A stretch of 64,000 bases of DNA from an uncultured Candidatus Sumerlaeota bacterium (GTDB lineage Bacteria > Sumerlaeota > Sumerlaeia > MWCT01 > JAUWMI01): the NCBI GenBank assembly GCA_964454265.1, contig CAYVXD010000001.1, positions 13,136-77,135 on the forward strand. Reading direction: 5' to 3'. The position numbers and the translations under genes are program-made. Each line of letters starts with the position of its first letter. Within the stretch, counting starts at the first letter, position 1. This document shows, piece after piece, positions 7,290 through 36,871 of this stretch. A model generated the notes under the pieces. It made no database searches, was not told the origin of the DNA, and was given only the letters and a program-made list of their open reading frames with translations.

Positions 7290-7354
7290 AGCTCACAGGG
7301 GTCGTATAGAAAGCAGCAAACAATCGGGAGAGCCAGCGTATGGCGGAGCTTCGG

Positions 7355-18266: not shown

Positions 18267-18316
18267 GCCTGTCCCTCCCTGTTTGCGCATAATTTTTCTT
18301 GGATACGTTCGGCCTG

Positions 18317-18793
18317 TCAGCCCCGCGTTATAGCGATCCGTCCGGTTCTGACCAATTCCTTGATGCCAAAAGGCTTCACCAGGTCAAGAAATGCTCCGAT
18401 TTTGTCCTGAGGCCCTGCGACTTCAGCTGTGAGTGTCTTCTGATTAACGTCAATAATCTTTGCCTTAAAGATTTCAATGATCTGTACGATCTCCCCACGT
18501 GTTTGTGAAGTACAATTGATCTTGACCAAAACTAGCTCACGGTCAAGATACTCGTCTTTCGTTATATCCTGTACCTTGATCACGTCTATCAGCTTGTTGA
18601 GCTGCTTGTTCACCTGCTCGATGATCTTGTCATCGCCAGTCACGATAATTGTCATGCGCGAAATTGTGGGATCTTGGGTCTCACCCACAGCTAGACTGTC
18701 TATATTAAACCCCCGGCTGCTGAACAGCCCCGCTATGTGCGACAATACCCCAAATCGGTTTTCTACCAAAACGGAAATGACGTGCTGCATCAA
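18317..18793 (-). CDS. ilvN: Acetolactate synthase small (regulatory) subunit
   Basis: [38 protein letters not shown] is the ACT-domain signature of IlvH/IlvN. It overlaps ilvB by 4 nt. Confidence 0.9.
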
Positions 18794-20742: not shown

Positions 20743-22095
20743 TTACCGCTTCGGAGCGTCATTCATGGAGGGAGAAACTGGCGGATCAGCTGATGTCTCA
20801 TTGGCATCGCGCGACGGTCGCGTATCGTTAGTTTTTAATTCGAACAGCTCGCGTAACAGCTCACAATACGAAAATCCTTTTCCTGTGCTGGCATGCTGCT
20901 TCATCTTTGCAGTGGGGAGATGGCTAATTTTGTTAATCAAAGCCTTACTGAAATATTCAATTTGCCGCAGCTGTTCGGTGGTGAACCCGTGTGAATTCTT
21001 GACCGAGCGTTCAATCTCCAGTTGGCGTACATCATCAAGGTATGCTCGAAATGCACGTACGGTTGGCACAATGTCGCGTGACGCTATCCAGTGGAGAAAT
21101 TTTGTCACTTCGCCCTCAATGATTTGCTCGACCTTCTCAAGTCCACTCCGGCGCTCTTGCACGTTTTTCTCAACAATGTGCTCAAGATCGTCAATATTGT
21201 ACAGGTAAACGTTTTCAATGGTATTTACTTCAGGATCAATGTCGCGCGGAACAGCAATATCAATCAGGAAGAGCAAGCGGTTTCTGCGCTTTTGCATGAT
21301 TGTCTCAAGTGCGCTTTTCCTGATTAAGAAATGCGGCGACCGGGTGGAGCTGATCACAATGTCGCTGCGGACCAGAAACTCCAGCCCGGAGTCGAACTCC
21401 ACTGGAATGCCTCCCAGCTGGCTTGCCATAGCCACTGCACGCTCATACGTGCGATTTACCACAAAGAGATTTTCAACACCTGCGTGCTTGAGATGCTTCG
21501 CCGTTGTTTCGCTCATGTCGCCGCTGCCAACCACCACGGCATTTTTGCCCCCCAACGTCCCAAAGATTTTCCTGGCCAGTTCAACTGCCGCGTAAGGGAC
21601 TGAGACGGCACTTCTACTAATATTGGTTTCAGTGCGAACTTTTTTTCCCACCGCGATAGCCCGCGAAAATAGTGTATTAAAAACCAGCCCCGTCGTGCCG
21701 CAGTCCATTGCCTTGTGAAATGCCTCTTTCACCTGGCCAAGAATCTGCGGCTCACCCACGATCATCGAGTCCACACTTGAGGCCACGCGGAAGACGTGGC
21801 GAACTGCCTGATCACCTACAAAGCGATAGAGGTAATCGTGGTACGAGCCACGCCCCAGGCCAGACAACTCGCCAAAAAAGTCACACACATCCCCCCTTGT
21901 GCCCGATGCAACCTGCCTCTGCACTGTGTAGATCTCCACCCGATTGCAGGTCGAGAGCACCACGGCTTCATCAACTCCGTACCTCTGAACCAGTCCTCTC
22001 AGGGCCTCAGCGAGTGTCCGGTCAGAAATGGCGAATTTCTCCCGGATCTCTACCGGGGCCGTTTTGTGACTGAGTCCTAGAACCGACAACAGCAT
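20743..22095 (-). CDS. hemA: Glutamyl-tRNA reductase with a roughly 30-aa hydrophilic C-terminal extension
   Basis: LSVLGLSHKTAPVEIREKFA, LSTCNRVEIY and GSGDMSE (NADP binding) match HemA. Confidence 0.85.
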   Translation of the reverse strand: MLLSVLGLSHKTAPVEIREKFAISDRTLAEALRGLVQRYGVDEAVVLSTCNRVEIYTVQRQVASGTRGDVCDFFGELSGLGRGSYHDYLYRFVGDQAVRHVFRVASSVDSMIVGEPQILGQVKEAFHKAMDCGTTGLVFNTLFSRAIAVGKKVRTETNISRSAVSVPYAAVELARKIFGTLGGKNAVVVGSGDMSETTAKHLKHAGVENLFVVNRTYERAVAMASQLGGIPVEFDSGLEFLVRSDIVISSTRSPHFLIRKSALETIMQKRRNRLLFLIDIAVPRDIDPEVNTIENVYLYNIDDLEHIVEKNVQERRSGLEKVEQIIEGEVTKFLHWIASRDIVPTVRAFRAYLDDVRQLEIERSVKNSHGFTTEQLRQIEYFSKALINKISHLPTAKMKQHASTGKGFSYCELLRELFELKTNDTRPSRDANETSADPPVSPSMNDAPKR

Positions 22096-22131
22096 GACTT
22101 CGCAATTTACTCCGCGCAGTGTTTTACCGTG

Positions 22132-22959
22132 CTACTGATATCCATGGAATTTTGACACGCCTAAAAAGTTGCCCGAGACGTACGCAATGACAATAAGGAC
22201 GCACCCCGTTATTGCAACATAGCCAGTTCGCTTACCAATCCACCCGATACGCGTACGCAGGTGAAGATACACAACATAGTAGAGCCACAGCACCACCGAT
22301 GACAGGACTTTTGCATCCATATAGCTGAACATGGTACGCACTTGTTGGGCAAAAAGCCAGCCCGTCACAATTCCAAATGTCAGAAATAGAAAACCGAATG
22401 AAATGCAGCGATGTGTGTAATGATCCATTCGCATGAGCGGAGGAAACCGGTCAAACAGACGCAGATAGCTCTTGTTCTTCATCTGGTAATCCAGCGCAAT
22501 GTAAAGAATGCCAATGCCTGCGGCCAAGATAAACAAGGCATAACTTAACATAAAAAACGGAATGTGGAGCACAGCGAATGCACTCCGGAGATACGACTCG
22601 GCAGAGGGTGCCTTAACAAGTCTGTCAAACGAGAGCGACACAATGTTGAGTACGATAATGCACGGTGTGAGAATTGCTGCCAGGAGATCAAACCGCAGAA
22701 TGGCGATGGCGACCGCGTTGGTGGCTATAAGAAAGAACGAAAGCAGGAGTAAGGAAGCCTTCAGCGTCGCAGCAGGGAACGATCCAATCTGCAGTCCGCT
22801 CACAAGGACGCCAAGCCCCATACATCCTACGGCAACCCAGGCTGCCAGAATGCCAATTCGGTTTGGTGCTTCACCTTTCGTCCATAATAGGCGCAGCGTC
22901 GCAATGAACGTCACCACCAGACTAAACGTAGCGCAGATATACAGAATTGTATCTACCAT
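22132..22959 (-). CDS. Cytochrome c assembly-family (CcsA/HemX-like) integral membrane protein
   Basis: Polytopic membrane protein with a Trp-rich C-terminal half (WLFAQQ...WLYYVVYLHLRTRIGW). It sits immediately upstream of hemA, as hemX does in other bacteria. Confidence 0.5.
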   Translation of the reverse strand: MVDTILYICATFSLVVTFIATLRLLWTKGEAPNRIGILAAWVAVGCMGLGVLVSGLQIGSFPAATLKASLLLLSFFLIATNAVAIAILRFDLLAAILTPCIIVLNIVSLSFDRLVKAPSAESYLRSAFAVLHIPFFMLSYALFILAAGIGILYIALDYQMKNKSYLRLFDRFPPLMRMDHYTHRCISFGFLFLTFGIVTGWLFAQQVRTMFSYMDAKVLSSVVLWLYYVVYLHLRTRIGWIGKRTGYVAITGCVLIVIAYVSGNFLGVSKFHGYQ

Positions 22960-23591
22960 TCTCCCTCCAGAACTTTCAACGCCTCTTGTCTGGCTGCGGC
23001 TCTTCCCTGAGATCTGATCAAATAAGGAATATCCATATTCAGAATTTTGTTCAGAATAAGGGATTTCTTTTGAGGATCACTAATTTTTTCCAGGATGAGA
23101 TCACGCAGCTCGCCGAGCAGATCAACGTAATCGCCATATGTCTCGTCGAACAACCTCTCCAGGTTCTTGCGGATCCTCTTCGACAATGCTGGACATTTCC
23201 CATCGCTCGAGACTGCGACCTGGAATCCTCCCCGTTGCACCACTGCAGGAACAATAAAATTGCACAAATCCGGCGCGTCAACAACATTGACCAACAACCG
23301 GCGTCGCCTAGCTTCCACAGAGATTTCCCGGTTTAAATCCTCATCATCGGTCGCTACAAATACTAGATCAGCCCCATCAATATCGCCTGGCTGATAGCTC
23401 CGCTGGTGAAGAGTTATTTTCGCCCTTTTGGCGAGGTGCAAAAGCGCGGCGGTAACCTCTGGACTCACCACAGTTATCTGGGCATTGAACGGCAACAGAT
23501 TGTAGACTTTGCGTTCAGCAATCTTGCCGCCGCCAACAACCATACATTTAAGGGAGTCAAGTCCCAAGAGTATCGGATAATAGCGTGGCAT
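22953..23591 (-). CDS. sirC: Precorrin-2 dehydrogenase / sirohydrochlorin ferrochelatase (siroheme synthase N-terminal domain, SirC/Met8-like)
   Basis: The Rossmann motif LKCMVVGGGKIAERKV and a length of about 210 aa match CysG-N/SirC. It is co-oriented with hemA. Confidence 0.7.
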   Translation of the reverse strand: MPRYYPILLGLDSLKCMVVGGGKIAERKVYNLLPFNAQITVVSPEVTAALLHLAKRAKITLHQRSYQPGDIDGADLVFVATDDEDLNREISVEARRRRLLVNVVDAPDLCNFIVPAVVQRGGFQVAVSSDGKCPALSKRIRKNLERLFDETYGDYVDLLGELRDLILEKISDPQKKSLILNKILNMDIPYLIRSQGRAAARQEALKVLEGEW

Positions 23592-23780
23592 AGCAGAATG
23601 GAGTAAATCCTTTGAAATCTAAGTGATTGGCGTGCCTGAACTTACTGCAGGTGACTCTACAGAATTTGACTGTAATGTCAATAGTTTTCCTTGCTGTGAA
23701 CCTGCGGATGCTGTTCCCTGCGCTTGTCTGCTCCACCTGTGACACGCTCTACTGGTTACCCGCTTGTTTGTCTCTTCGTC

Positions 23781-23803
23781 GCCTCTCAGAGGCATGTTTT
23801 TTC
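23781..23803 (+). terminator. Intrinsic-terminator-like hairpin plus T-run on the plus strand, just upstream of the lysC promoter
   Basis: GCCTC-tca-GAGGC followed by atgTTTTTTc. Confidence 0.3.
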
Positions 23804-23816
23804 TCGTGATTTCTTC

Positions 23817-23845
23817 TTGACAAGCCTACTGAATCGCCATACAAA
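23817..23845 (+). promoter_or_regulatory. Sigma70-like promoter (TTGACA-N17-TACAAA) for lysC
   Basis: TTGACA at 23817-23822, a 17-nt spacer, then TACAAA. It lies about 70 nt upstream of the lysC start. Confidence 0.35.
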
Positions 23846-23917
23846 GAGAAGCTAATTTTTTATGCTGCCAGTCTGTGGTGAATTCTCTACAATGATCTTC
23901 ATGGGAGGCATTTCACA

Positions 23918-25138
23918 TTGGGTATTGTTGTGCAGAAATTTGGTGGGTCATCCGTGGCGGATGCCAAGAGAATCATAAGTGTAACTCGGAGGGTGATTGC
24001 TGAGAAGGATAAGGGAAACCGGGTAGTCGTCGTGGTCTCGGCCATGGGGAAAACAACCGACAATCTGCTGGCCCTGGCCTCGCAGATCACAGACAGGCCC
24101 GATCCGCGCGAGATTGATATGCTCATCTCAACTGGTGAGCAGATTTCCATCTCGTTGCTGGCAATTGCCATTCAATCCATGGGCTATCCGGCAATTTCGT
24201 TCACCGGTCCCCAGATCGGCATTTTGACTGATCAGATTCATCGCAAGGCAAAAATTGTTCACATTAACGACGAGAAGATCAAACGGGCACTGGAGGAGGG
24301 AAAGGTTGTCATCGTTGCCGGTTTTCAGGGGTGCACCCTGGAAAACGAGATCACCACACTGGGCAGGGGCGGCTCAGACACTACTGCCGTTGCCCTGGCG
24401 GCCGTGCTCGGGGCCGACGTGTGTGATATTTATACGGATGTTGACGGCGTTTATACCACCGACCCGCGCATCGTTAAGAATGCCCGCAAGCTCGACCGTA
24501 TCTCATACGACGAAATGTTGGAACTTGCCAGCCAGGGCGCCAAGGTGCTCTATTCTCGCGCCGTGGAATTTGCAAAGAAATACAATGTTCCGGTTCATGT
24601 ACGGTCTAGCTTTAATGACAACCCCGGCACCATGGTAGTGAAGGAGGAGAAAGATATGGAAGATATTGTTGTCAGCGGCGTGGCCTATAACCGCGACGAG
24701 GCAAAGATTTCCATACTCGGCGTGCCCGATCGGCCGGGAATTGCCGCTGAAATATTTGGCAGTCTGGGCGACGCCAATATCATCGTAGATATGATTATTC
24801 AGAACGTGGCCGAGAAGGCACTGAACGATATCTCCTTTACCGTTGGAAAGGATGACTTCAACGAAGCCCTTAATGTCGCCAAGCAGGAATGCAAACGCCT
24901 CAAGGCACGGGATGTCGTCTACGATACAGAGATCGCCAAAGTCTCGGTGGTCGGCGTTGGCATGAAAAGTCATTGTAGCGTGGCAGCCAAGATGTTCAGG
25001 GCTCTGGCAAAGAACAATATTAATATCGAGATGATCAGCACCTCGGAAATCAAAATCTCGTGCATCATCAATGGCAAAGATCTCGACAAGGCTGTGCAGG
25101 CGATTCACGACGAGTTTGAACTCGAGGTCGCAAAATAA
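23918..25138 (+). CDS. lysC: Aspartate kinase (monofunctional, with C-terminal ACT domains)
   Basis: MGIVVQKFGGSSVAD plus the AAK-fold motifs VVVVSAMGKTTD. Two ACT repeats follow. Confidence 0.9.
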   Translation: MGIVVQKFGGSSVADAKRIISVTRRVIAEKDKGNRVVVVVSAMGKTTDNLLALASQITDRPDPREIDMLISTGEQISISLLAIAIQSMGYPAISFTGPQIGILTDQIHRKAKIVHINDEKIKRALEEGKVVIVAGFQGCTLENEITTLGRGGSDTTAVALAAVLGADVCDIYTDVDGVYTTDPRIVKNARKLDRISYDEMLELASQGAKVLYSRAVEFAKKYNVPVHVRSSFNDNPGTMVVKEEKDMEDIVVSGVAYNRDEAKISILGVPDRPGIAAEIFGSLGDANIIVDMIIQNVAEKALNDISFTVGKDDFNEALNVAKQECKRLKARDVVYDTEIAKVSVVGVGMKSHCSVAAKMFRALAKNNINIEMISTSEIKISCIINGKDLDKAVQAIHDEFELEVAK

Positions 25139-26091
25139 TGCCCAAAAAGGGAAAGCCGGTTGATCTCAAGCGTGTCACGACGTACCCCATCCGTAGCCGC
25201 GTGAGTAAACTGGATCAGTCGTTGCTGGCACGGCTTCCCTCGCCCGATAAGCCTCTGGCCGAGTTTTTCCGCACCTGGCCAAAACTGCTAAAGGCCAAGG
25301 AATTCCTCCGCATCGCTGAGCGCATGGCCCATGCTCACCGGACCGACCGTGCTGTTGTTTGGATGATGGGCGCACATCCGATCAAGTGCGGCCTCTCGCC
25401 TCTGATTGTTGATCTGATTAAGCGTAAGGTCATCACCTGTGTTGCCATGAATGGCGGTGCTGCTATCCACGACTTCGAACTCGCCTTCTTCGGCCACACG
25501 AGCGAAGACGTCGACCGCGGCCTCGAAGACGGTTCCTTTGGCATGGCCCAGGAAACCGGTGAAGGCATGAACAACATCATCAACGAAGGCGTGCGCCGCG
25601 GTTACGGCATTGGCGAGGCACTTGGGCAGAGCATCCTGCGCCGTGGCGCTAAATTCCAGGAACTCAGCATCCTCTGCCAGGGTTTCAAAGACAACCTTCC
25701 GGTAACCGTCCACATTGCCTTGGGCACTGATATCATTCATCAGCATCCAAACGTGGATGGCGTGGCGCTTGGCAAGGGTGGTATTCTGGATTTTCGGATC
25801 CTGGCAGGTCAGCTGCCGGGCTTAAACGATGGTGGGGTAGTGATCAATTGCGGCTCGGCTGTGATTATGCCCGAGGTCTTCTTGAAGGCCCTGACAATCG
25901 CCCGCAACCTTGGCAATAAGGTAAAAGACTTCACCGCTGTGAACCTGGATATGATCGAGCACTACCGACCTATGGCTAATGTCCTCACCCGGCCAACCAG
26001 CCTTGGCGGCGAAGCCTATTCAATCGTAGGGCATCACGAGATCATACTTCCGCTTTTGTACTCAGCGATTCTCACTCAACTCAAGTCTTGA
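25138..26091 (+). CDS. Deoxyhypusine synthase-family (DHS-like) protein, putative
   Basis: MMGAHPIKCGLSPLIVDLIKRKVITCVAMNGGAAIHDFE resembles the DHS NAD-binding region (V..TTAGG.EED.I). A Gly-rich region matches later. The start ATG overlaps the lysC TAA as TAATG. Confidence 0.4.
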   Translation: MPKKGKPVDLKRVTTYPIRSRVSKLDQSLLARLPSPDKPLAEFFRTWPKLLKAKEFLRIAERMAHAHRTDRAVVWMMGAHPIKCGLSPLIVDLIKRKVITCVAMNGGAAIHDFELAFFGHTSEDVDRGLEDGSFGMAQETGEGMNNIINEGVRRGYGIGEALGQSILRRGAKFQELSILCQGFKDNLPVTVHIALGTDIIHQHPNVDGVALGKGGILDFRILAGQLPGLNDGGVVINCGSAVIMPEVFLKALTIARNLGNKVKDFTAVNLDMIEHYRPMANVLTRPTSLGGEAYSIVGHHEIILPLLYSAILTQLKS

Positions 26092-26336
26092 TATCCGATA
26101 CCCGTTCTGTGTACTGATTAGATGTGGATTAACACAGGCAGAGTAGTGGGAAATCACAGACTGGGTTATAACGGGCAGGCGTTCAGCAATACGCGAACTT
26201 GCGCTGCAGAGCCATCTTTGGCACTGCCCGTCCTTAGGAGCCGCAAAATTTGCCTTGCAAAAATCAACCGGAATTGTGATAGATAAATATGGAGTCGGTT
26301 GAGTATTATTAAATTTGTGCGCACGGGCTCGGCCTG

Positions 26337-27635
26337 ATGAACATTACGCTTCAATGCATTGATTGTGGAAAGCAGTACGATCCGCTGGAGCTTCGCTACA
26401 CGTGCGATTGCGGCGGCCTGCTCGACGCGATTCATGATCTCGACCGCCTGAAATCCTTGCCTCTTAAACAGCTCTTCGACGAGCGCTGGAACTCGCGCTC
26501 GTTTCCCTACAACTCCGGGGTCTGGCGCTATAGGGAACTCATTATTCCTGTTGATGATCAGTTCATAGTATCTAAACCGGAAGGGAACACCAATCTGTAT
26601 CCCGCCGGAAAGGCGGGTGAGTATGCTGGCCTGCGCCGCATGTTTCTCAAACATGAAGGTGAGAATCCCACCAGTTCATTTAAAGATCGTGGGATGACCT
26701 GCGGTATCACTATGGCACGGCTACTGCACGCCGACACTGTCGCCTGTGCCTCCACTGGCAACACCTCTGCCTCTATGACCGCCTACGCGGCCCTCGCTGG
26801 CATGCGGGCCATCATCTTCATCCCCGAAGGCAAGATCAGCTACGGCAAGCTAACCCAGGCCCTGGCGTACGGCGGGAAAACGTTCCAGATTCAGGGCAAT
26901 TTTGACGACGCCATGGCCCTCGTGGTGGAGGTCTGTAAGGAACTTAATATCTACCTTCTTAACTCCATCAACCCGTTCCGCATTGAAGGCCAGAAAGCAA
27001 TTGGCTTTGAGGTGCTTCAGCAGCTCAACTGGCAGATGCCAGACTGGTTCGTGCTGCCAGGGGGAAACCTGGGCAACAACAGTGCGCTGTCTAAAGGGCT
27101 GAAGGAGCTTTTCGACATTGGCCTTATTACTAAGATTCCGCGCATTGCTGTAATTCAGGCCGAAGGCGCCAACCCTCTTTACAAAATGTGGAAAGAGAAA
27201 ACTGCTTTCAAACCGGTCAGGCAACCCGAGACCATTGCAACCGCCATCAAAATCGGGAATCCCATCTCGTGGAAAAAGGCCATGCGAGGCATTGAGTGGA
27301 GCAACGGCGTTGTTGAGCAGGTCTCGGAGCAGGAAATCATGGATGCCAAAGCGTGGGTGGATGCCGTGGGAATTGGTGCTGAGCCTGCTTCTTGCTGCTC
27401 CATTGCTGGCGCTAAAAAGCTAGTTGAAAAGGGCGTGATCCATCCTGATGAACTGGTCATTGGTATTCTAACCGGTCATCTGCTCAAGGATCCTGAAGCC
27501 GTAATTCGCTACCACACGGGTGACCTCAAGTCGCTAGGGATTGAGTCGAGGTATGCGAATGCGCCGATTCGGATTGAACCTACACTTGATGCGGTGAGGG
27601 AGGCGCTCTATGAAGTACGTCGTGTTTCTCGCTGA
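26337..27635 (+). CDS. thrC: Threonine synthase
   Basis: N-terminal Cys4 zinc ribbon (CIDCGK...CDCGG), the PLP lysine motif SFKDRGM and the SINPFRIEGQK motif. Confidence 0.85.
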   Translation: MNITLQCIDCGKQYDPLELRYTCDCGGLLDAIHDLDRLKSLPLKQLFDERWNSRSFPYNSGVWRYRELIIPVDDQFIVSKPEGNTNLYPAGKAGEYAGLRRMFLKHEGENPTSSFKDRGMTCGITMARLLHADTVACASTGNTSASMTAYAALAGMRAIIFIPEGKISYGKLTQALAYGGKTFQIQGNFDDAMALVVEVCKELNIYLLNSINPFRIEGQKAIGFEVLQQLNWQMPDWFVLPGGNLGNNSALSKGLKELFDIGLITKIPRIAVIQAEGANPLYKMWKEKTAFKPVRQPETIATAIKIGNPISWKKAMRGIEWSNGVVEQVSEQEIMDAKAWVDAVGIGAEPASCCSIAGAKKLVEKGVIHPDELVIGILTGHLLKDPEAVIRYHTGDLKSLGIESRYANAPIRIEPTLDAVREALYEVRRVSR

Positions 27636-28815
27636 CGGAATGGCTGACGAGCCACTCCCGGAGCTCTCAAACAAAACACCACTTATGGTCGCTCGTACGC
27701 CTCACCTTGATCGCCTGGCGCGTAACGGCCGATGCGGAACACTCCTCACCTTGCCCGAAGGCTTTCCCACCAGCTCAGACGTTGCGAACCTCTCAGTGCT
27801 CGGCTACGACCTTGCATCCTGCTATACGGGTCGCGGCCCTCTTGAAGCAATCAGCCAGGGCATTAAACTCGGCCCTCATGATGTCGCATTCCGCTGTAAC
27901 CTGATCACTGCGAAGGACGGCGTCCTTGACGAATACTCGGGCGGGCACATCAGTAGCGAGGAAGCGTGCGAACTCATACATGCCCTGGACGAAAAATTTG
28001 GCACTCCCAAAATCCGCTTCCATCCGGGCGTTAGTTATCGGAACATTCTGATTCTTTCTGGCGAGGAGTTTTCTGACCAACTTGAATACCACAAGCCCGA
28101 TAGCTCCCACGGTATGGCGATTCGCTCGATCTTGCTTGCGCCGAAGGAGCCAGATGCGAAAGCGACCGCAGAGCTCCTCAATCAGATGACTCTCGATTCG
28201 GAAGATTTGCTCAGCAGCCATCCAGTTAACAAGAAACGCGTTTCCGAGGGAAAGAAACCTGCTAATATGATCTGGCTATGGAGCCCGGGTAAAAAGCCTG
28301 AGCTCGAAGCCTTTCACCGCAAGTACGGCCGCCACGGTGCCATTATCTCGGCCGTTGACGTCATCTTTGGCATTGGTATTGCTGCTGGCATGAAGATCAT
28401 CAAAGTGCCAGGCGCAACCGGCTATATTGATACGAATTACGAAGGGAAAGCTGATGCTGCGCTTAAGGCACTCCAACGCGTGGACTTTGTGTATGTGCAC
28501 GTTGAAGCGATTGACGAAGTCAGCCACCTTGGTAAGCTTGACCTTAAGCTGCAGGCGATCAAAGACTTCGACCGCCGAGTGTTAGGCCATTTCCTCGAAC
28601 GCTGCCCACCCGGTGTGACTGTTGCTGTTCTGCCCGACCATCCTGTGCCCCTCAAACTCCGCAAGCACACCCGCACACCCGTGCCATTTGCCATCTACAA
28701 ACCCGGAACAACGCCTGACATGGTTGCTGAGTTTAATGAGTATTCCTGCCACGAAGGGAGTCTCGGCGAGCTCAAAGGCGATGGCTTTATGAAAGCTCTC
28801 TTCCGTACCGCATGA
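27610..28815 (+). CDS. Cofactor-independent phosphoglycerate mutase-like (ApgM/alkaline-phosphatase superfamily) protein; proposed non-orthologous homoserine kinase
   Basis: MKYVVFLADGMADEPLPEL..KTPL is the ApgM-family N-terminus. The start overlaps the thrC end by 26 nt. This family is known to cluster with thrA/thrC in Bacteroides-type thr operons. Confidence 0.6.
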   Translation: MKYVVFLADGMADEPLPELSNKTPLMVARTPHLDRLARNGRCGTLLTLPEGFPTSSDVANLSVLGYDLASCYTGRGPLEAISQGIKLGPHDVAFRCNLITAKDGVLDEYSGGHISSEEACELIHALDEKFGTPKIRFHPGVSYRNILILSGEEFSDQLEYHKPDSSHGMAIRSILLAPKEPDAKATAELLNQMTLDSEDLLSSHPVNKKRVSEGKKPANMIWLWSPGKKPELEAFHRKYGRHGAIISAVDVIFGIGIAAGMKIIKVPGATGYIDTNYEGKADAALKALQRVDFVYVHVEAIDEVSHLGKLDLKLQAIKDFDRRVLGHFLERCPPGVTVAVLPDHPVPLKLRKHTRTPVPFAIYKPGTTPDMVAEFNEYSCHEGSLGELKGDGFMKALFRTA

Positions 28816-29122
28816 TGTTGACACCCGCCTTGTAAACCCTAGCGAACTCTGAAAATGACCTGATCTGAATCCTGCTGGCACGAAATAGAATTTATGGCGT
28901 AGCCACTGCTGGAACGACGAAATATTTTCTCCGAGCATCAGCTATCGTATCATAAAACTTCTATCAAGCGGACAGCAACCACAGCGAATTTTTCCAAGGA
29001 GCCCTTTATTCAAATTCCTGCCAGGTCTATAACCCTTTCCGGCCTTGCACCATGCCTGAACAAGGCAACTGTGCGGCAGTGTTTGGTCACCCCTCAAGCC
29101 GTCTGAGTGTAATGAAAAAGCA

Positions 29123-29151
29123 TTGACTTTTCATGGGGTTTCTCCTATCAA
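29123..29151 (+). promoter_or_regulatory. Sigma70-like promoter (TTGACT-N17-TATCAA) upstream of hisH
   Basis: TTGACT at 29123-29128, a 17-nt spacer, then TATCAA at 29146-29151. It is about 50 nt upstream of the hisH ATG. Confidence 0.35.
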
Positions 29152-29199
29152 GAGACTTCTTAAATTTCAGAGTTGATTTTTTTACCTTATGGCACTGAA

Positions 29200-29814
29200 A
29201 TGAGCATCGTTATTATAGATTATGGGATGGGGAATCTGCGCAGTGTGGAGAAGGCGTTTGTGCGCCTGGGGTTTACGGTGGAGATTACGTCTGACCCGGA
29301 CGCTATCAATCGCGCAGAAAAGATTGTAGTACCCGGTGTTGGCGCTTTTGGCGACGCCATGCGCGAGTTGCGCGAGCGCGGTCTAATCGAGCCTCTTCTG
29401 TGCGCAATCACTGATCAGCGTCCCTTTCTTGGCATCTGCCTTGGCTTGCAGGTGCTCTTTGAAGGAAGCGAAGAAGCCCCAAATGTCCCAGGACTTGGCG
29501 TGATCCCAGGTCTCGTGAAGCGCCTTCAGACCGACCTTAAGGTGCCCCATATGGGCTGGAATACGCTTCATGTTATTCGCCGTCCCCCGATCCTTGACGG
29601 CATTTCCGACAGCGCCTACGTCTATTTTGTCCATTCCTACTACGTTGAGCCGATGGATGGCTCCGTCACTGCAACCACAACAGACTATGGCATTTCGTTC
29701 ACCTCGATGATCTGGAGGGGCAACCTTTTTGCCACTCAGTTCCACCCCGAGAAGAGCCAGGCAGTGGGGTTAGAGATTCTAAAAAAGTTCGGAGAATATC
29801 GTGGCGAAACCTGA
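29200..29814 (+). CDS. hisH: Imidazole glycerol phosphate synthase glutamine amidotransferase subunit
   Basis: IVIIDYGMGNLRSV, the catalytic Cys region GICLGLQ and PHMGWN are HisH signatures (class I GATase). No hisF lies next to it. Confidence 0.75.
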   Translation: MSIVIIDYGMGNLRSVEKAFVRLGFTVEITSDPDAINRAEKIVVPGVGAFGDAMRELRERGLIEPLLCAITDQRPFLGICLGLQVLFEGSEEAPNVPGLGVIPGLVKRLQTDLKVPHMGWNTLHVIRRPPILDGISDSAYVYFVHSYYVEPMDGSVTATTTDYGISFTSMIWRGNLFATQFHPEKSQAVGLEILKKFGEYRGET

Positions 29815-30736
29815 TCAAACGGGCATCAGAATCAAAGTACCCGCATCTACCACAAATCTTGGGCCAGGCTATGATTGCCTAGGCCTTGCTCTGAAACTTT
29901 ACAATTATATTGAATTCGAGCGGCTGCCGCGCGGAAAAACGCAGCTCATCTGGCAAGGCGAACAAAATGACGCCATGCGTCCGCATGTTGAGAAGCTCGT
30001 ACTGCGAGCAGCAAGAGAGATATTTGATTTGTGCGGAGTTAGTGCTCCAGGCTTGAGAATTACCTTGAAGCTCAATATCCCCATTGCACGAGGGCTTGGC
30101 AGTAGTGCAACCGCCATTATCGCCGGCATGGTCGCAGCGAATGAATTATGTGGCAGTCGGATTTCCCGAGAAAAGCTTCTGGTACAGAGCGCAAAGTTTG
30201 AAGGGCATCCTGACAACGTCACGGCTTGCTTTCTGGGTGGTTTAACTGCTTCAACGTTTAGTGGAGATGGTCTTGCGATCAGGAAGTATCGACTCAGAAG
30301 TGCGCTCAAAGTGGTTGTTGTTGTCCCCTCCTATGGTCTGGAAACCAGAAAGGCGCGCGCGGTGATTCCGAAGCACGTGAAGCACCGTGACGCAGTGTTT
30401 AACCTCAGCCGCGTTCCTCTGGTGATTGATCGCCTGGTTACGGGCGAATTATCTGACCTTCAGCGCTTGATGCAGGATCGCCTCCACCAGCCTTATCGTA
30501 AACCGTTGATTAAAGGTTATGACCAGATTGTCAGAGCCGGCCTGAATGCAGGTGCGGGTGCAGTAGTACTCAGCGGCGCAGGCCCTTCCATGGTCGCTTT
30601 TTGCACCTCCAATGTTGAACAGGTTGCCACGTCCATGGGGGAGATTCTGAGCACCCTTAACATATCAAACTACGTCTTGATTCTCTCGCCGGATAATCGC
30701 GGAACCGTTGTCGAACACTTTGACCGTATCTCATAG
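29801..30736 (+). CDS. thrB: Homoserine kinase (GHMP kinase)
   Basis: KVPASTTNLGPGYDCLGLAL, the GHMP motif PIARGLGSSAT and the expected length of about 310 aa. Confidence 0.85.
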   Translation: MAKPDQTGIRIKVPASTTNLGPGYDCLGLALKLYNYIEFERLPRGKTQLIWQGEQNDAMRPHVEKLVLRAAREIFDLCGVSAPGLRITLKLNIPIARGLGSSATAIIAGMVAANELCGSRISREKLLVQSAKFEGHPDNVTACFLGGLTASTFSGDGLAIRKYRLRSALKVVVVVPSYGLETRKARAVIPKHVKHRDAVFNLSRVPLVIDRLVTGELSDLQRLMQDRLHQPYRKPLIKGYDQIVRAGLNAGAGAVVLSGAGPSMVAFCTSNVEQVATSMGEILSTLNISNYVLILSPDNRGTVVEHFDRIS

Positions 30737-30796
30737 ACTTTTTACATTATCAACTCCCTTCGAAACGTCAGTGGGGCAGGGCCTGGAGCATGTGTA

Positions 30797-32002
30797 ATGC
30801 CTGATCTGAAGGTAACATTTTGTGGCGTTCCTTTTGAGAATCCCTTTCTGCTTGCCGCAGCACCATCAACAGATGAGCTCGACATGGTGCGACGCGCTTA
30901 CGAGTCCGGATGGGCAGGCGCAGTATTAAAAACAACATCTGTGGTCGGTACGCGTGTACCCCTCAGGTACCCGCTCCTGGCTGCATCGGCCGACCCGAAT
31001 CGCAAGCTCTATGCCTTGGGCAACATTGATCTGATCTCGAAGTATCACGTTGACGTTGTGGCGGAGCGCATACAGACACTTGCTCGCGAATTCCCGGAGA
31101 AGGTCACAGTTCCCAGCATCATGGGCGCTACGCTGGAACAGTGGAAGACCCTGGTTCATATATGCGAGCAGGCAGGGGCCAGAGTCATTGAGTGCAGCGT
31201 CAGCTGTCCACAAGGCACGCTTGGATCAAAGCCCGGCTTGATGTTGGGCCAGGATGTTGGGTTGGTTGAGGAGATCACGCGCTTGCTCGTCAGCGCCGCC
31301 ACGGTCTCCCGTATTGTGGTGAAACTTACTCCACTCGTAGCTGATATTGTTGAAACTGCCCGTGCTGTGAAACGAGCAGGGGCACATGCGGTCTCCGCAA
31401 TCAACACCATACCATCTCTCATGGGTGTTGATCTCGAAACTCTGGTTCCTCAGCCTGATGTTGGCGGCAAATCTACTTACAGCGGGCTCTCGGGTCCGGC
31501 GATAAAACCCGTGATGCTTCGGGCTGTTGCAGAAATTGTGCGCCATACCGGCCTGGAGGTGACGGCTACCGGCGGGATTATGAGCTGGCGCGATAGCGTG
31601 GAATCATTGCTGGTTGGAGCTCGTACGGTGCAGCTCTGCACGGCAGTGATGCTGAATGGCTTCGGTGTTATCAATGAGTTGCGCGATGGCCTGCAGCGCT
31701 TTATGGAGGGCAAGGGATTCGAGCACGTAGAAGATGTCATTGGCCGGTCCCTCCCGCACATTGTCACCTTCGACGAGCTACCCGAGCAGTTTCACGTGCG
31801 AGCGCGGATTGATCTGACAAAATGTACCCGATGTGGCCGATGCTTTATTGCTTGTCGCGATGGCGGTCACGTGGCTGTTCGCATGGAAGCAGATAAACAA
31901 CCAAGCATTGACGACACACGATGCGTGGGGTGCGGCTTGTGCCAAATTGTCTGTCCGGTTGAGCGCTGTATCAGTATGGCTGCAATAGCGAAGTCCCCTT
32001 GA
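30797..32002 (+). CDS. Dihydroorotate/dihydropyrimidine dehydrogenase-family flavoprotein with two C-terminal 4Fe-4S ferredoxin motifs (PreA-like)
   Basis: DHOD-like TIM barrel (VPFENPFLLAAAP, KLTPL, TATGGI) plus CTRCGRCFIAC and CVGCGLCQIVCP cluster motifs. Length 401 aa, like E. coli PreA. Confidence 0.65.
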   Translation: MPDLKVTFCGVPFENPFLLAAAPSTDELDMVRRAYESGWAGAVLKTTSVVGTRVPLRYPLLAASADPNRKLYALGNIDLISKYHVDVVAERIQTLAREFPEKVTVPSIMGATLEQWKTLVHICEQAGARVIECSVSCPQGTLGSKPGLMLGQDVGLVEEITRLLVSAATVSRIVVKLTPLVADIVETARAVKRAGAHAVSAINTIPSLMGVDLETLVPQPDVGGKSTYSGLSGPAIKPVMLRAVAEIVRHTGLEVTATGGIMSWRDSVESLLVGARTVQLCTAVMLNGFGVINELRDGLQRFMEGKGFEHVEDVIGRSLPHIVTFDELPEQFHVRARIDLTKCTRCGRCFIACRDGGHVAVRMEADKQPSIDDTRCVGCGLCQIVCPVERCISMAAIAKSP

Positions 32003-32008
32003 GGAGGG

Positions 32009-33346
32009 TTGTGTGTGATTATTTACAATGCAACGGTCATCTCAGTCGGTGCAAAGCCACTGCTTATTCCGAATGGGGCTGTGTATGTTCGCGATGATCG
32101 GATTGTAGACGTAGGGAAGAGCTCTCGCATCATGAAGGCCTACAGGTCGGCGGGCTCTATTAATGCTAATGGTAAAGTGTTGATGCCAGGGTTGATTAAC
32201 AGCCATACGCATCTGTACAGCACATTTGCGCTGGGCATGCCATCAATTGGACAGCAACCTCGCAATTTCATGCAGACGCTGAGAAGAGTCTGGTGGCGTC
32301 TGGACAGGGCACTCTCTGAGGAAGCGATTCGGCTCAGCGCACTGCTTTCGCTGGCTCAGGCAATTCGTGCCGGCACCACTACGTTGATTGACCATCATTC
32401 GAGCCCCAACGCGATCCGCGGAAGCCTCGATTGCCTTAGCAACATTGTTGAACGTGTAGGCATTCGCGCATGTATGAGTTACGAGGTTTCGGATCGCGAC
32501 GGGAAACGCTGCACTCGCGAAGGAATTGAAGAAAACGTACGCTTCCTCCAGGCAATAAATCGTCGCTCATCTCTGGTGCGCGGCATGTTTGGTCTACATT
32601 CCTCGTTTACCCTGTCTGATGAGACGCTGCGCCGGTGTGTCACTGCAGCCCGAGCCGTTAATGCGGGATTTCATCTCCATTGTGCGGAATCTTTGACTGA
32701 CAATGAAGACAGCATGAAGAAATACGGAAAAGGTGTGGTAGAGCGACTGGCCAAAGTCAGCGTTCTGGGGCCTCAGACCATTCTGGCGCACTGCGTTCAT
32801 ATTTCTGATGCGCAAATCAGCCTCTTGGCCAAAACCCGCACAATGGTCGCTCACAACCCACGATCAAATATGAACAACGCGGTGGGCTGTGCTCCACTCA
32901 CGCACATGCTCAAGCGTGGCGTAACCGTGGGATTAGGAACCGACGGCATGTCGGAATCGATGTGGGACGAGCTGAAGACAGGCGTCTTGCTCCATAAACA
33001 CGTTGGCCGAGACGTGCGCGCAGGCACCAGTGGGATGATCACTGCACTGTTTCAAAACAATGCGCGCATAGCCAGCCAGATTTTTAACACAAAGATCGGC
33101 GTAATTGAAAAACGTGCAAAGGCCGATCTGATTCTGGTTGACTACTACATGCCAACGCCGCTAACCAAGGAAAACCTTGCGGCACACGTTCTCTTTGGCA
33201 TTGCAAATGCACCGGTTGATACCACAATTGTAAATGGTAAAATTCTCATGCGGAACAGGAAATTGCGCGGAATTGATGAGAGCAGGATTGCAACGCGCGG
33301 CCGAAAAATTGCCAGGCTGCTCTGGCGTCGCATGGTCTCTTCGTAG
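32009..33346 (+). CDS. SsnA-like amidohydrolase (chlorohydrolase/aminohydrolase family)
   Basis: VLMPGLINSHTHLYST is the metal-binding HxH motif, with later HLHCAES and GLGTDG motifs. Length 445 aa, like SsnA. Its stop codon is embedded in the palindrome at 33343-33370. Confidence 0.65.
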   Translation: MCVIIYNATVISVGAKPLLIPNGAVYVRDDRIVDVGKSSRIMKAYRSAGSINANGKVLMPGLINSHTHLYSTFALGMPSIGQQPRNFMQTLRRVWWRLDRALSEEAIRLSALLSLAQAIRAGTTTLIDHHSSPNAIRGSLDCLSNIVERVGIRACMSYEVSDRDGKRCTREGIEENVRFLQAINRRSSLVRGMFGLHSSFTLSDETLRRCVTAARAVNAGFHLHCAESLTDNEDSMKKYGKGVVERLAKVSVLGPQTILAHCVHISDAQISLLAKTRTMVAHNPRSNMNNAVGCAPLTHMLKRGVTVGLGTDGMSESMWDELKTGVLLHKHVGRDVRAGTSGMITALFQNNARIASQIFNTKIGVIEKRAKADLILVDYYMPTPLTKENLAAHVLFGIANAPVDTTIVNGKILMRNRKLRGIDESRIATRGRKIARLLWRRMVSS

Positions 33347-33370
33347 GGGCAATTCATGAATTGTCCCTAC
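33343..33370. repeat. REP-like 28-bp near-perfect palindrome, copy 1 (GTAGGGGCAATTCATGAATTGTCCCTAC)
   Basis: The two arms are reverse complements except for one position per arm. The sequence overlaps the TAG stop of the upstream gene. Confidence 0.8.
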
Positions 33371-33460
33371 ATTATTTATTGTATGCAAGAAAGGGAGAAG
33401 AGGCATCGGCATAAGGTTCTTGTATGTTACAAGGTTTTGCGATTTAATAATGTAATTTTT

Positions 33461-33489
33461 GTAGGGGCAGGTTTAAAACCTGCGCCTAC
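33461..33489. repeat. REP-like palindrome, copy 2 (GTAGGGGCAGGTTTAAAACCTGCGCCTAC)
   Basis: Same GTAGGGGC...GCCCCTAC-type arms with a different palindromic core. It has the same left flank, TTTTTGTAGGGG. Confidence 0.75.
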
Positions 33490-33534
33490 CGTGACAAAGA
33501 AGAGCAGAGTATTTCCCGGTAAGGAGTATTCCCC

Positions 33535-34557
33535 ATGGACATTGCCAATACAATTCTCGATACGACTGCCAATACCCCACTGGTACGGCTCAATCGCGTT
33601 AACGCAAACGTCGGGACAGAGATACTGGCTAAGATTGAATACTTCAGTCCAAGTGGAAGTGTTAAGGATCGCATCCTGCGGCACATCGTGGACGAAGCAG
33701 AAGGCACTGGGCAGCTGAAACCGGGGATGATTTTGATCGAAGCCACCACAGGTAACGCAGGGATTTCTACCGCCATGATCGCTGCAGTTAAAGGATATCA
33801 GGCAGTCATCTGTATGCCCGGCGGCATGAGTGAAGAGCGCAAGAAGATCATTCGCGCTTATGGTGCTACGATTGTTGAGACACCCGGAGGGGAGAGCGAC
33901 GTTGATCTCGTGATGAAGAAAGTCCGTGAAATTATGGCTGAAGCGCCAGGCCGCTACTGGGAAGTCGGCCAATTCACCAATCCGAATAACTGGCAGGCAC
34001 ATTATCACACCACAGGGCCGGAAATCTGGCGCCAGACCGGTGGACAGATTGATGCCTTCATAGCCGCCCAGGGAACCGGTGGTACGATAACCGGCGTAGC
34101 AAAGTATTTTCGCGAACAGAAGGCGCAGACGAAGTTCTATGCGATTGAGCCAGCCGAATGTCCTCTCCTGACTAAAAGCCAATGGGGATCGCATAAGATC
34201 GAGGGGATCGGCGATGGATTCATCCCTGAAACGCTCGATGTCAGCCTGCTGGATGGTGTGGTCACGACCACGAGCGAGGAAGCGATTAACATGGCCCGGC
34301 GGCTGGCGCGCGAAGAGGGGATTTTCTGTGGTATCTCGTCCGGGTGCAGCGTGGTTGGCGCGCTCAAGCTCGCCAGGCTTCATCCAGAGTACCGCCGTAT
34401 TGTTACGATGATCTGGGATAATGGGTTGCGCTATTTTTCAACGGAATTATGCGGTGAGCAGAAACAGCTCGATTCTCCAGAGCGGGAACACCCCATGGAC
34501 GCGCGTACGCAAGCATTGCTGAAAAAGTACCGGAGCCACTGGGAGGTGATCGAGTAG
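33535..34557 (+). CDS. Cysteine synthase-family (CysK/CysM-like) PLP-dependent enzyme
   Basis: PLVRLNRV...SGSVKDR (PLP lysine), TTGNAGIS, and a Gly-rich loop GTGGTITG. Confidence 0.75.
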   Translation: MDIANTILDTTANTPLVRLNRVNANVGTEILAKIEYFSPSGSVKDRILRHIVDEAEGTGQLKPGMILIEATTGNAGISTAMIAAVKGYQAVICMPGGMSEERKKIIRAYGATIVETPGGESDVDLVMKKVREIMAEAPGRYWEVGQFTNPNNWQAHYHTTGPEIWRQTGGQIDAFIAAQGTGGTITGVAKYFREQKAQTKFYAIEPAECPLLTKSQWGSHKIEGIGDGFIPETLDVSLLDGVVTTTSEEAINMARRLAREEGIFCGISSGCSVVGALKLARLHPEYRRIVTMIWDNGLRYFSTELCGEQKQLDSPEREHPMDARTQALLKKYRSHWEVIE

Positions 34558-35790
34558 GTGGAGACAGGTGGAATAAACCCAGCGATGATCCGCGAAAAGG
34601 CCGAGGCGTACCGCGAGGCGATGACCGGCTTTCTGCGCGAGCTCATTGCGATCCCCTCGCCAAGCGGCCAGGAAAAGCGAGTCATAGAGCGCGTGCGGCA
34701 GGAAATGCAACAGGCCGGCTTTGATGAAATTCTCATTGACGATTTCGGTACTATTGCCGGCCGCCTGGGGTCGCGTGGCCCCCACATCGTATTTGATAGC
34801 CACCTCGACACTGTCGGTGTCTCAGACCCCACCGCATGGGATTTCGATCCGTATAAGGGTAAGATCGAGCGCGATGCCGTGTGGGGAAGAGGCGCTGCTG
34901 ACAACAAAGCCGCTGCCGCAGCGCATCTTTACGCCGCCAAGATAATCAAGGAAATAGCCCGGACCCAGGAGCTGCCCTTCACACTGTTCGTCGTCGGCTC
35001 GGTGCAGGAAGAGGATTGCGATGGGCTTGCTCTGGGCCACCTGATCACTCAGACACTGAAGCGGGTGGATTGTGTGGTGCTGGGTGAATGCACTAACTGT
35101 CAGATTTATCGTGGACATCGTGGCCGTGCAGAACTACTGATCCAGACACGAGGTGTTGCATGTCATGCCAGCAATCCCGACCGTGGTGAAAACGCCATTT
35201 ACAAAATGGCTCCGCTGATTCGTGAACTAGAGCAATTGAATGCGGAACTTGGTACCGATCCCTTTCTAGGCAAAGGCAGCATTGCGGTAACCAAGATTGA
35301 GTGCGACACGGATTCTCTGAACTGTGTTCCTTCGGCTTGCCGTATCTTTGCAGATCGTCGCCTCACGCGCGACGACAGTAGGGGAGAGGTGATTGGACAA
35401 CTCAGGCGGCTACCTTCGGCTTCACAAGCGCACATTAGCATTCTGCGGCGTGCAATGACATCCTGGACCGGTAAGAATCTCGAGAAGGATCAGTACTTTC
35501 CGGCATGGGCGCTTGAGGAATCTCATGAGCTTGTTCAACAAGCTCGCAAGTCCTACGAAGGGCTTTTTGGCGAAGCTCCCCGCATTGGGAAATGGACGTT
35601 CAGTACGAATGGGGTGGCCACGATGGGCGAACTCGGCATCCCAACGATAGGATTTGGGCCCGGAGAAGAGCAGTTCAGTCACAGTACTCAGGATCATGTC
35701 CCAATTGATCATCTGACCCGAGCCGCAGCCTTTTACGCGGCATTTCCGTTCGTTTACTCGGGTGCCATTACTTACGGGTCAGAGAAATAA
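34558..35790 (+). CDS. M20-family metallohydrolase (YgeY / ArgE / DapE-like)
   Basis: M20 metal-binding motifs (HLDTV, GAADNK, EEDCDG) and a length of about 410 aa. Confidence 0.65.
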   Translation: METGGINPAMIREKAEAYREAMTGFLRELIAIPSPSGQEKRVIERVRQEMQQAGFDEILIDDFGTIAGRLGSRGPHIVFDSHLDTVGVSDPTAWDFDPYKGKIERDAVWGRGAADNKAAAAAHLYAAKIIKEIARTQELPFTLFVVGSVQEEDCDGLALGHLITQTLKRVDCVVLGECTNCQIYRGHRGRAELLIQTRGVACHASNPDRGENAIYKMAPLIRELEQLNAELGTDPFLGKGSIAVTKIECDTDSLNCVPSACRIFADRRLTRDDSRGEVIGQLRRLPSASQAHISILRRAMTSWTGKNLEKDQYFPAWALEESHELVQQARKSYEGLFGEAPRIGKWTFSTNGVATMGELGIPTIGFGPGEEQFSHSTQDHVPIDHLTRAAAFYAAFPFVYSGAITYGSEK

Positions 35791-35831
35791 AGATAATCAG
35801 GCCACAGCAAATTGTGAGATAGGGATTATAT

Positions 35832-36836
35832 ATGAACCAGGGATTAAAAGGTCGTGACTATATTACTACGCAGGAATGGACGCTCCAGGAGATGGAAGTT
35901 GCTTTAAGCCTGGCTACAGAGCTCAAGCAGATGAAGCGCCGAGGCATACCGCATCGTTATCTTGAGGGCAAGACGCTTTTCATGTTTTTTTTCGACAAGT
36001 CCACGCGAACGCGCAACTCATTCGAAGCGGGCATGACGCAACTCGGCGGCCACGCTCACTATATTGACGCAGAAACTTCCCAGATCGCGCATGGGGAGAG
36101 TCCAAAAGACACCGGCATCATTATGTCGCGTTACGGCCACGGTATTGCCATCCGTCATGATTTAGTCCCCGGTGAGGGGAATGCGTATATCCGCGAAGTC
36201 GCACGATGGGCCGACGTTCCGGTCTTGAACATGCAGTGTGATGTGGATCATCCCTGCCAGACTCTTGCTGATCTAATGACCCTACGCGAACAGCTCGGGC
36301 ACGATCTGCGTGACGTAAAAATTGCAGTTTCTTGGGCTTACGCGCCAAGCTACGCCAAGCCTCTCTCCGTGCCTCAGGGCCTAATCTTGCTACTGACTCG
36401 CTATGGCATGCATGTCACCCTGGCACATCCGCCTGAGTACAGTCTCATGCCTGAGATTGTCGAGCAGGCACGGCAGAATGCGCAGGCGAGTGGTGCGAAA
36501 TTCGAGATTGTTGACTCCATGGACGAGGCGTTTCGCAATGCAGCAGTGGTTTACCCCAAATCTTGGGGTGTGCTGGAGCTTTTCGGCCAGCCTGAGGAAT
36601 CGCTCAAATTGGCCCGGCAATATCAACACTGGATTTGTGACGAGCGGCGAATGGGTTTGACTGCTTCTATTAAGCATGCGTCAACAACTAGGTCATCGCT
36701 TTATATGCATTGTTTGCCCGCAGATCGTGGCCATGAAGTAACCGATTCAGTAATTGATGGCCCACACTCTGTGGTCTATGATCAGGCAGAAAACCGGCTC
36801 CATACGTGCAAGGCCTTAATGGCTCTGACAATGTGA
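35832..36836 (+). CDS. Aspartate/ornithine carbamoyltransferase-family protein, YgeW-like (substrate unknown)
   Basis: STRTR carbamoyl-phosphate motif, HPCQ and HCLP. The ornithine-binding DxxSMG region of true OTCs is absent. Confidence 0.55.
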   Translation: MNQGLKGRDYITTQEWTLQEMEVALSLATELKQMKRRGIPHRYLEGKTLFMFFFDKSTRTRNSFEAGMTQLGGHAHYIDAETSQIAHGESPKDTGIIMSRYGHGIAIRHDLVPGEGNAYIREVARWADVPVLNMQCDVDHPCQTLADLMTLREQLGHDLRDVKIAVSWAYAPSYAKPLSVPQGLILLLTRYGMHVTLAHPPEYSLMPEIVEQARQNAQASGAKFEIVDSMDEAFRNAAVVYPKSWGVLELFGQPEESLKLARQYQHWICDERRMGLTASIKHASTTRSSLYMHCLPADRGHEVTDSVIDGPHSVVYDQAENRLHTCKALMALTM

Positions 36837-36871
36837 ACGCCGGATAGTTCAAGGCGCGCTGGTGTTCTATA

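Follow-up and report, generated by a model that had tools for sequence, protein, structure and literature searches.

We analysed a 64 kb stretch of DNA (the window) from a metagenome-assembled genome (MAG) of Candidatus Sumerlaeota, in which genes were called as open reading frames (ORFs) of at least 100 aa; 50 of the 53 ORFs obtained in this way were scanned with profiles. On its forward strand the window carries a block of six genes: lysC, a gene of the GSU2086 family, thrC, homK, hisH and thrB (Table 1). Two of these genes are candidates for the same step of threonine synthesis. The product of thrB is a GHMP homoserine kinase of the canonical type, while homK, which overlaps the end of thrC, encodes a protein that resembles archaeal phosphoglycerate mutases (ApgM) and falls into the family HomK (also called ThrB2, TIGR02535). 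All parts of the block come from known families, and what we describe is an unusual arrangement and no new system; new are the lineage, the overlap of thrC and homK with a neighbouring thrB, and a conserved hisH-thrB pair.

Table 1. Genes, junctions and promoter-like motif around the thrC-homK-hisH-thrB region (positions in the window)
Feature	Position	Strand	Evidence or details
lysC, monofunctional aspartate kinase; opens the proposed upstream unit	23918-25138	+	NF005155 619 bits; TIGR00656 458 bits
GSU2086-family protein	25138-26091	+	NF052581 402 bits (cutoff 250)
thrC, threonine synthase	26337-27635	+	TIGR00260 281 bits (cutoff 167); PALP domain; PLP-lysine motif SFKDRG at residues 114-119
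thrC/homK junction	27596-27635	+	GAGGGAGG 27596-27603; homK ATG 27610; thrC TGA 27633-27635
homK (ThrB2/TIGR02535), ApgM-like phosphotransferase	27610-28815	+	TIGR02535 500.5 bits; Glu299 codon 28504-28506
Spacer of 384 nt with promoter-like motif	28816-29199	+	TTGACT 29123-29128, 17 nt, TATCAA 29146-29151
hisH, glutaminase subunit of imidazole glycerol phosphate synthase	29200-29814	+	TIGR01855 244 bits (cutoff 105)
hisH/thrB junction	29791-29814	+	GGAG 29791-29794; thrB GTG 29801; hisH TGA 29812-29814
thrB, canonical GHMP homoserine kinase	29801-30736	+	TIGR00191 253 bits (cutoff 168)
preA-ssnA-cysK-like-ygeY-OTCase-like-xdhC block	30797-37675	+	

An initial annotation of this DNA had placed the start of the ApgM-like gene 26 nt inside the 3' end of thrC and had given hisH and thrB an overlap of 14 nt, and both overlaps can be read directly from the sequence. 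A strong Shine-Dalgarno sequence, GAGGGAGG, stands within thrC 6 nt upstream of the homK ATG, and GGAG precedes the GTG of thrB by the same distance. The overlap with homK takes up the last 8 codons of thrC, which belong to a C-terminal tail of 45 residues (388-432) that extends past the TIGR00260 profile; at its other end ThrC has a Cys-rich motif, CIDCG...CDCGG (residues 7-27), that resembles a zinc ribbon. Short gene overlaps are frequent in bacterial operons, and overlaps alone would be unremarkable. Both of them, however, reappear in two loci whose genes were called independently (L086 and L087) and whose block proteins are 80-91% identical to those of the window. Since the overlaps persist at protein identities of 82-91%, we take them to be real.

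The order of the six genes is found again, complete, in L001, L002, L086 and L087 and in part in L097, that is, in five other assemblies. L001 (JAUWMI010000008.1) is the closest, with 97% protein identity to the window. The lysC gene is kept at the equivalent position in L001, L086 and L087. Downstream of thrB, L086 and L087 carry a DUF3604 gene instead of preA. This recurrence in other assemblies, together with the different genes that follow thrB, indicates that the block is a unit and no assembly artefact. Across the genes of the cluster, the z-scores of GC content at third codon positions (GC3) run from -1.3 to +2.0, with no outlier; we considered whether thrB or homK had been acquired recently by horizontal transfer, and base composition gives this no support.

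The gene name that the NCBI pipeline gives to homK is a different one. Its top NCBIfam match is NF003242 'cofactor-independent phosphoglycerate mutase' (508 bits), and all of its named homologues are called cofactor-independent phosphoglycerate mutase. The gene might then encode a glycolytic enzyme, in which case ThrB would be the sole homoserine kinase and the position behind thrC would be meaningless. We compared the protein with both families using hidden Markov model (HMM) scores, with solved mutases as controls, and a column analysis of aligned sequences. The scores of any given protein with NF003242 and with TIGR02535 are nearly equal, so that the name is a label and no test. The homK product exceeds the trusted cutoff of TIGR02535 (446.3 bits), with its residues 1-398 aligned to positions 1-396 of the 397 in the profile, and it scores lower, at 480.7 bits, with the general apgM model TIGR00306. 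The archaeal ApgM equivalog NF003104/PRK04024 gives it 335.6 bits, below the cutoff of 489. The solved mutases 2ZKT and 3KD8 behave in the opposite way: they pass PRK04024 with 585 and 523 bits and obtain 318 and 273 bits with TIGR02535. These comparisons place the ApgM-like protein in TIGR02535 rather than among the archaeal phosphoglycerate mutases. An exact look-up of the HomK protein gave no record; by homology, the 120 proteins listed and the 80 genome loci are all of Sumerlaeota or PVC-group type, at 53% identity or more.

The residues of the active site point in the same direction. In an alignment of 119 TIGR02535-type sequences with the mutases 2ZKT and 3KD8, the catalytic Ser56 and the metal ligands Asp9, Asp302, His306, Asp343, His344 and His353 are invariant throughout. 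A single column, position 299, has Lys in both mutases and Glu in all other sequences (HVEAID in the window protein). Five further cationic residues of the mutases, His60, Arg110, His143, His164 and Arg224, are replaced in HomK by Asn, Ser, Tyr, Asp and Trp. Since the serine and the ligands are invariant and the cationic residues are replaced, HomK has retained the phosphotransfer machinery, and its pocket has lost positive charge, a change that would be unfavourable for a doubly anionic substrate. With the archaeal enzymes (2ZKT, 3KD8/3IDD and SSO0417) the protein thus shares the PhosphMutase and Metalloenzyme fold family of Pfam, the catalytic serine and the two-metal site, and it differs from them in its PRK04024 score and in K299E, H60N, R110S, H143Y, H164D and R224W. 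Of the two traits by which the initial annotation would have recognised a glycolytic mutase, the catalytic serine and metal ligands are present, as they are throughout the superfamily, and clustering with glycolytic ApgM is absent.

Members of the family have been characterised. Two of them, BT2402 of Bacteroides thetaiotaomicron and DET_RS08350 of Dehalococcoides mccartyi, rescue an E. coli thrB::kan mutant; in BT2402 the likely specificity residue, by which HomK can be told from the mutases with their Lys, is Glu299; and the phosphate donor of HomK is not yet known (GapMind 2026, 10.1101/2024.10.14.618325). The proposal of the initial annotation, that the gene at 27610 belongs to a mutase-like family that replaces ThrB, has therefore held up: the membership is that of TIGR02535, and replacement by this family has since been demonstrated. 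The window protein resembles the two characterised members in its full-length match, Ser56, the ligands, Glu299 and its placement in an operon of the threonine/aspartate family. The likeness to a Bacteroides-type arrangement, which had also been noted, applies loosely. In the Bacteroidetes operon thrB2 and thrC are accompanied by an Asd-Hom fusion (PMC9026213), whereas here homK comes after thrC and overlaps it, and the two are preceded by a monofunctional lysC and a gene of unknown function.

Gene neighbourhoods speak on both sides of the mutase reading. The presence of a canonical ThrB would agree with it, as would the solitary position of the homologue at the 78 other homK-type loci, which come from other Sumerlaeota and from Lentisphaerota and Kiritimatiellota (PVC-group). 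When the neighbours of 55 homologues from Lentisphaerota and Kiritimatiellota were clustered, no conserved threonine, aspartate or glycolysis partner was found. In 3 of these approximately 55 loci (L066 among them), enolase is encoded two genes upstream of the TIGR02535-type gene and on its strand; this is the sole glycolysis-related neighbour seen, and it may reflect chance or shared ancestry. A mutase would, however, leave the conserved translational coupling to thrC unexplained, and together with the lost pocket charge, the profile scores and the rescue of thrB mutants by other members of the family, this makes a glycolytic role improbable in our judgement.

The linkage of homK to thrC is confined to a clade of at least 85% identity. 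Because the nearest HomK outgroups (62-68% identity; L081-L085, L095 and L096) are solitary and stand in unrelated contexts, the coupling is recent. It puts HomK into the slot that is usual for ThrB: among 79 more distant thrB loci, thrC lies directly upstream of thrB in 20 and lysC directly downstream in 15, and none of the 79 has hisH or homK beside thrB. One assembly, GCA_964526215.1, holds both a solitary HomK (L096) and a locus where preA comes directly after hisH, without an intervening thrB (L089). This combination, the only link within one assembly that was found, fits a turnover of ThrB and HomK within the phylum; the other accessions compared for HomK and ThrB in Sumerlaeota belong to separate assemblies.

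Coupling to thrC would suit a consumer of the ThrC product as well as a maker of the ThrC substrate. It is thus conceivable that the two genes are not redundant and that the HomK-like enzyme phosphorylates another hydroxy-amino acid, for instance L-threonine to L-threonine-O-3-phosphate for the aminopropanol arm of cobalamin, which would account for the retention of both genes. For homologues in the vicinity of cobD or corrinoid genes a threonine kinase function has been proposed (PMC4285132; GapMind 2026 Appendix 3), and the solitary homologues of the PVC-group lack any threonine context. The proposed L-threonine kinases, Dehre_1608 ('CbiU'; PMC4285132) and the HomK-like proteins linked to cobD, share with the window protein their branch of the superfamily and the Glu at the specificity position. 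Their genes, however, lie in corrinoid or cobD operons, whereas homK stands behind thrC with no cobalamin gene identified in the window. Neither cobD nor a corrinoid gene was seen beside homK, whether in the window or at the loci called with Pfam, and such genes are not prominent in the most frequent neighbour clusters at the remaining loci, though no explicit search for cobD was made. The cobD-linked proteins are moreover closer to TIGR00306 (GapMind 2026), while homK passes TIGR02535 and scores higher there, and the lysC gene upstream indicates the homoserine branch. We consider a threonine kinase, or a similar separate function, unlikely.

The second candidate for homoserine phosphorylation had been described as a textbook GHMP kinase with its motif about 1 kb downstream of homK; this description is borne out, with a thrB start that lies 985 nt beyond the homK stop, the motif PASTTNLGPGYD at residues 14-25 and a score that passes TIGR00191. 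GLGSSA (98-103) and GAGPS (259-263) complete the three GHMP motifs. With ispE, the next-best GHMP model, the score is 69 bits (cutoff 286). Every one of the seven solved relatives is a homoserine kinase (best 5WAT, 5e-45), and the protein is 37-45% identical to ThrBs encoded in thrC-thrB-lysC operons. The GTG start is backed by an independently called protein (P0241, 311 aa) that is 100% identical. As judged by these matches, the window ThrB is genuine and canonical. Compared with canonical thrC-thrB(-lysC) operons (those of 5WAT and 1FWK, for example), it is a normal member of its family and lysC and thrC are its usual partners, but homK and hisH here come between thrC and thrB, and thrB is coupled to hisH.

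A different assignment is conceivable, in which the kinase at 29801 would use not homoserine but, for example, 4-hydroxythreonine, or have a role linked to HisH, and HomK alone would feed ThrC. The E. coli ThrB accepts 4-hydroxythreonine, and in three contexts the kinase is paired with hisH and not with thr genes. The assignment would nevertheless have to contend with the TIGR00191 and ispE scores, with solved relatives that are homoserine kinases without exception, with the identity to ThrBs of threonine operons, and with intact GHMP motifs and an intact N-terminal motif of homoserine kinases; it seems to us very unlikely. In a Sumerlaeaceae MAG (L093, 7039-8960), a thrB homologue of 44% identity overlaps the end of prs, the gene of phosphoribosyl pyrophosphate (PRPP) synthetase, by 4 nt; prs is thus another non-thr partner of thrB in the phylum.

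For hisH the ORF list gave a TTG start at 29173, and the HisH profile begins at residue 12 of that ORF; the start is the ATG at 29200, which fits an independently called protein of 204 aa (P0121) that is 100% identical. The Cys-His-Glu triad is present (Cys80 in GICLG, His182 and Glu184), as is HMGWN at residues 117-121, and the best solved relatives are the HisH proteins 4GUD and 1KA9. In its equivalog-level match, triad and HMGWN motif the protein is like HisH of known structure (4GUD, 1KA9, 1GPW); unlike in the usual setting, its gene is paired with thrB and not with hisF or hisA. Neither of these two genes, nor hom or asd, was found among the 53 ORFs of the window, 50 of which were scanned, in agreement with the initial annotation, which had seen no hisF or hisA neighbour.

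Two further suggestions of that annotation, that hisH was inserted between homK and thrB and that it may supply ammonia to a different synthase, were not sustained. A stand-alone hisH occurs in five contexts, namely the window clade, L091/L092, L094, L088 and L089. It directly precedes thrB in L091/L092 (25-nt spacer, ThrB 56% identical to that of the window) and in L094 (12-nt spacer, 53% identical), and in neither of these outgroups is thrC or homK close to the pair. The hisH-thrB pair, which occurs in three contexts, is therefore the old and conserved element of the lineage, with the thrC-homK operon brought alongside. As to the synthase, an ammonia supply to a partner other than HisF, with a role in the threonine cluster, would accommodate the absence of hisF and hisA from the 64 kb and the persistence of the pairing through three contexts. 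It would not accommodate a protein that exceeds the HisH equivalog cutoff more than twofold, keeps its triad, and shares 62% identity with a planctomycete HisH whose gene adjoins a His_biosynth gene. In relatives hisH stands alone directly before lolA (L088) or preA (L089), which leaves no recurring partner, and the threonine pathway is without any amide-transfer step. Histidine genes are scattered in many phyla. We regard such a role as extremely doubtful and read HisH as an ordinary stand-alone glutaminase subunit in a lineage that probably has scattered his genes.

The genes that follow hisH in these relatives also occur in the window. In L088 (3224-4768) hisH is followed by lolA, lptE, a histidine kinase gene and a response regulator gene; in the window the same series begins at 37795, past the 8-kb thrB-xdhC block. 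The junction of hisH and preA in L089 lies in the region 6001-7826. It seems that genes are gained or lost particularly often in the interval from hisH to lolA, which would make it a hotspot.

The spacer between homK and hisH suggests where one transcription unit ends and another begins. In L086 it has diverged apart from AAAAGCATTGAC, which contains the -35-like TTGAC, and in the window a -10-like hexamer, TATCAA, follows TTGACT at 17 nt. TTGAC is also present approximately 55-90 nt upstream of every outgroup hisH (L088, L089, L091 and L094). The likeliest organisation, as far as can be predicted from these sequences, is one of two transcription units, the first from lysC through the GSU2086-family gene and thrC to homK and the second comprising hisH and thrB. 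A scan for promoter and terminator consensus sequences gave nothing above the shuffled expectation. A search of positions 23500-31000 against Rfam (E up to 1), which included this spacer and the 245-nt gap upstream of thrC, gave no match, and an attenuator or riboswitch in the two gaps, which had been considered, was dropped for this reason. The gap upstream of thrC (26092-26336), which follows the GSU2086-family gene, measures 465 nt in L086; an internal promoter or some regulatory element may lie within it.

We propose that the block consists of two neighbouring units of ordinary amino-acid genes and that HomK and ThrB would be two routes to O-phosphohomoserine, caught in an intermediate state of displacement; our confidence in this explanation lies only slightly above even. 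In the first unit HomK, a phosphotransferase of the alkaline-phosphatase superfamily, would form a phospho-serine intermediate at Ser56 with the help of two metal ions and transfer the phosphate to L-homoserine. Translational coupling would tie its synthesis to that of ThrC, which consumes O-phospho-L-homoserine. The second unit would be transcribed from its own promoter, approximately 50-75 nt upstream of hisH, and perhaps extend into preA; its ThrB would be the ATP-dependent homoserine kinase that opens the second route. The homK gene would be a resident one that was shifted behind thrC only in this clade of genus or family level, so that the window clade would represent an intermediate of non-orthologous displacement between ThrB and HomK. 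That the two enzymes are redundant and do not divide the labour between them is something we infer.

Several points weigh against this proposal. With ThrB present, threonine synthesis needs no HomK. Since none of the 78 other homK-type loci has a thr or asp neighbour, gene context backs a homoserine role in the window clade only. Glu299 of the window protein is equated with Glu299 of BT2402 because Asp9 and Ser56 are numbered identically in both and because there is a single Lys/Glu column, and the BT2402 ligands given as D274, H278 and H325 (GapMind 2026) do not map simply onto the window protein. The rescue by BT2402 was weak, with a gain in optical density (OD) of 0.14 after 47 h, and a prior attempt at it had failed (PMC7311316). 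Finally, the promoter upstream of hisH is a consensus match that was found by hand and has its backing in conservation.

The coexistence of both genes is rare and has precedents. As a rule a genome has either ThrB or ThrB2: of 300 gut genomes that carry ThrB2, 22 have thrB as well and 278 lack it (PMC9026213). The window, from Sumerlaeota, has a canonical thrB 1 kb from homK. A genome without thrB is thus a trait that is typical of the family and not strictly defining, and it does not apply here. A functional parallel is offered by Pseudomonas aeruginosa, where ThrB and ThrH (cited in GapMind 2026) likewise combine an ATP-dependent kinase with an ATP-independent phosphotransferase that is able to make the same product. 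The Pseudomonas ThrH, a phosphoserine:homoserine phosphotransferase, nevertheless belongs to the HAD family, which is unrelated to HomK, and thrB and thrH are unclustered there.

It is also possible, though we think it an outside chance, that the HomK of Sumerlaeota and the PVC-group is not a simple substitute of ThrB. It would then carry out a distinct reaction near thrC and divide the labour with ThrB, and the hisH-thrB pair might reflect a regulatory link between the supply of histidine and that of threonine. Such a reaction may be the phosphorylation of L-threonine, or a reversible exchange of phosphate between O-phosphohomoserine and another phospho-amino acid, e.g. phosphoserine.

The remaining gene of the first unit, that of the GSU2086 family, shares one base of its start with the lysC stop codon and is kept between lysC and thrC in L001, L002, L086 and L087. 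No solved relative was found for its product, and a single-sequence AlphaFold model reached a predicted local distance difference test score (pLDDT) of 34. The Geobacter namesake, GSU2086, lies in a heptose operon, hldE-GSU2086-gmhA (PMC5585712). An alternative homoserine dehydrogenase was considered for this protein and found no supporting evidence.

The surroundings of the block hold genes of other pathways. The cluster downstream of thrB is typical of selenium-dependent purine/pyrimidine catabolism and encodes a PreA-like dihydropyrimidine dehydrogenase subunit, SsnA, a CysK-like pyridoxal phosphate (PLP) enzyme, YgeY, a carbamoyltransferase-like protein and XdhC; the CysK-like enzyme is a borderline match (357 bits, cutoff 351). 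A gene like that of 8-oxoguanine deaminase lies at the start of the window (95-1333, forward strand). On the reverse strand, and divergent from lysC, are ilvB-ilvN-ilvC (17271-20502) and a group made up of hemA, a CcsB-like gene and a gene with the N-terminal domain of siroheme synthase (20743-23591), the last of which has the same position in L086.

HomK (ThrB2) was confirmed as a substitute for homoserine kinase only recently, and a HomK that is coupled to thrC next to a ThrB would be a natural intermediate of non-orthologous gene displacement. Close relatives appear to carry only parts of the set, which would make this group a convenient comparison system for HomK. Both genes could be compared in one background, with regard to the timing of their expression and to the benefit of an ATP-independent route in an anaerobic fermenter. 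In MAGs of Sumerlaeota and the PVC-group, the label 'cofactor-independent phosphoglycerate mutase' probably masks an enzyme of the threonine pathway, and such mislabelling affects the calls of glycolysis and auxotrophy in metabolic reconstructions.

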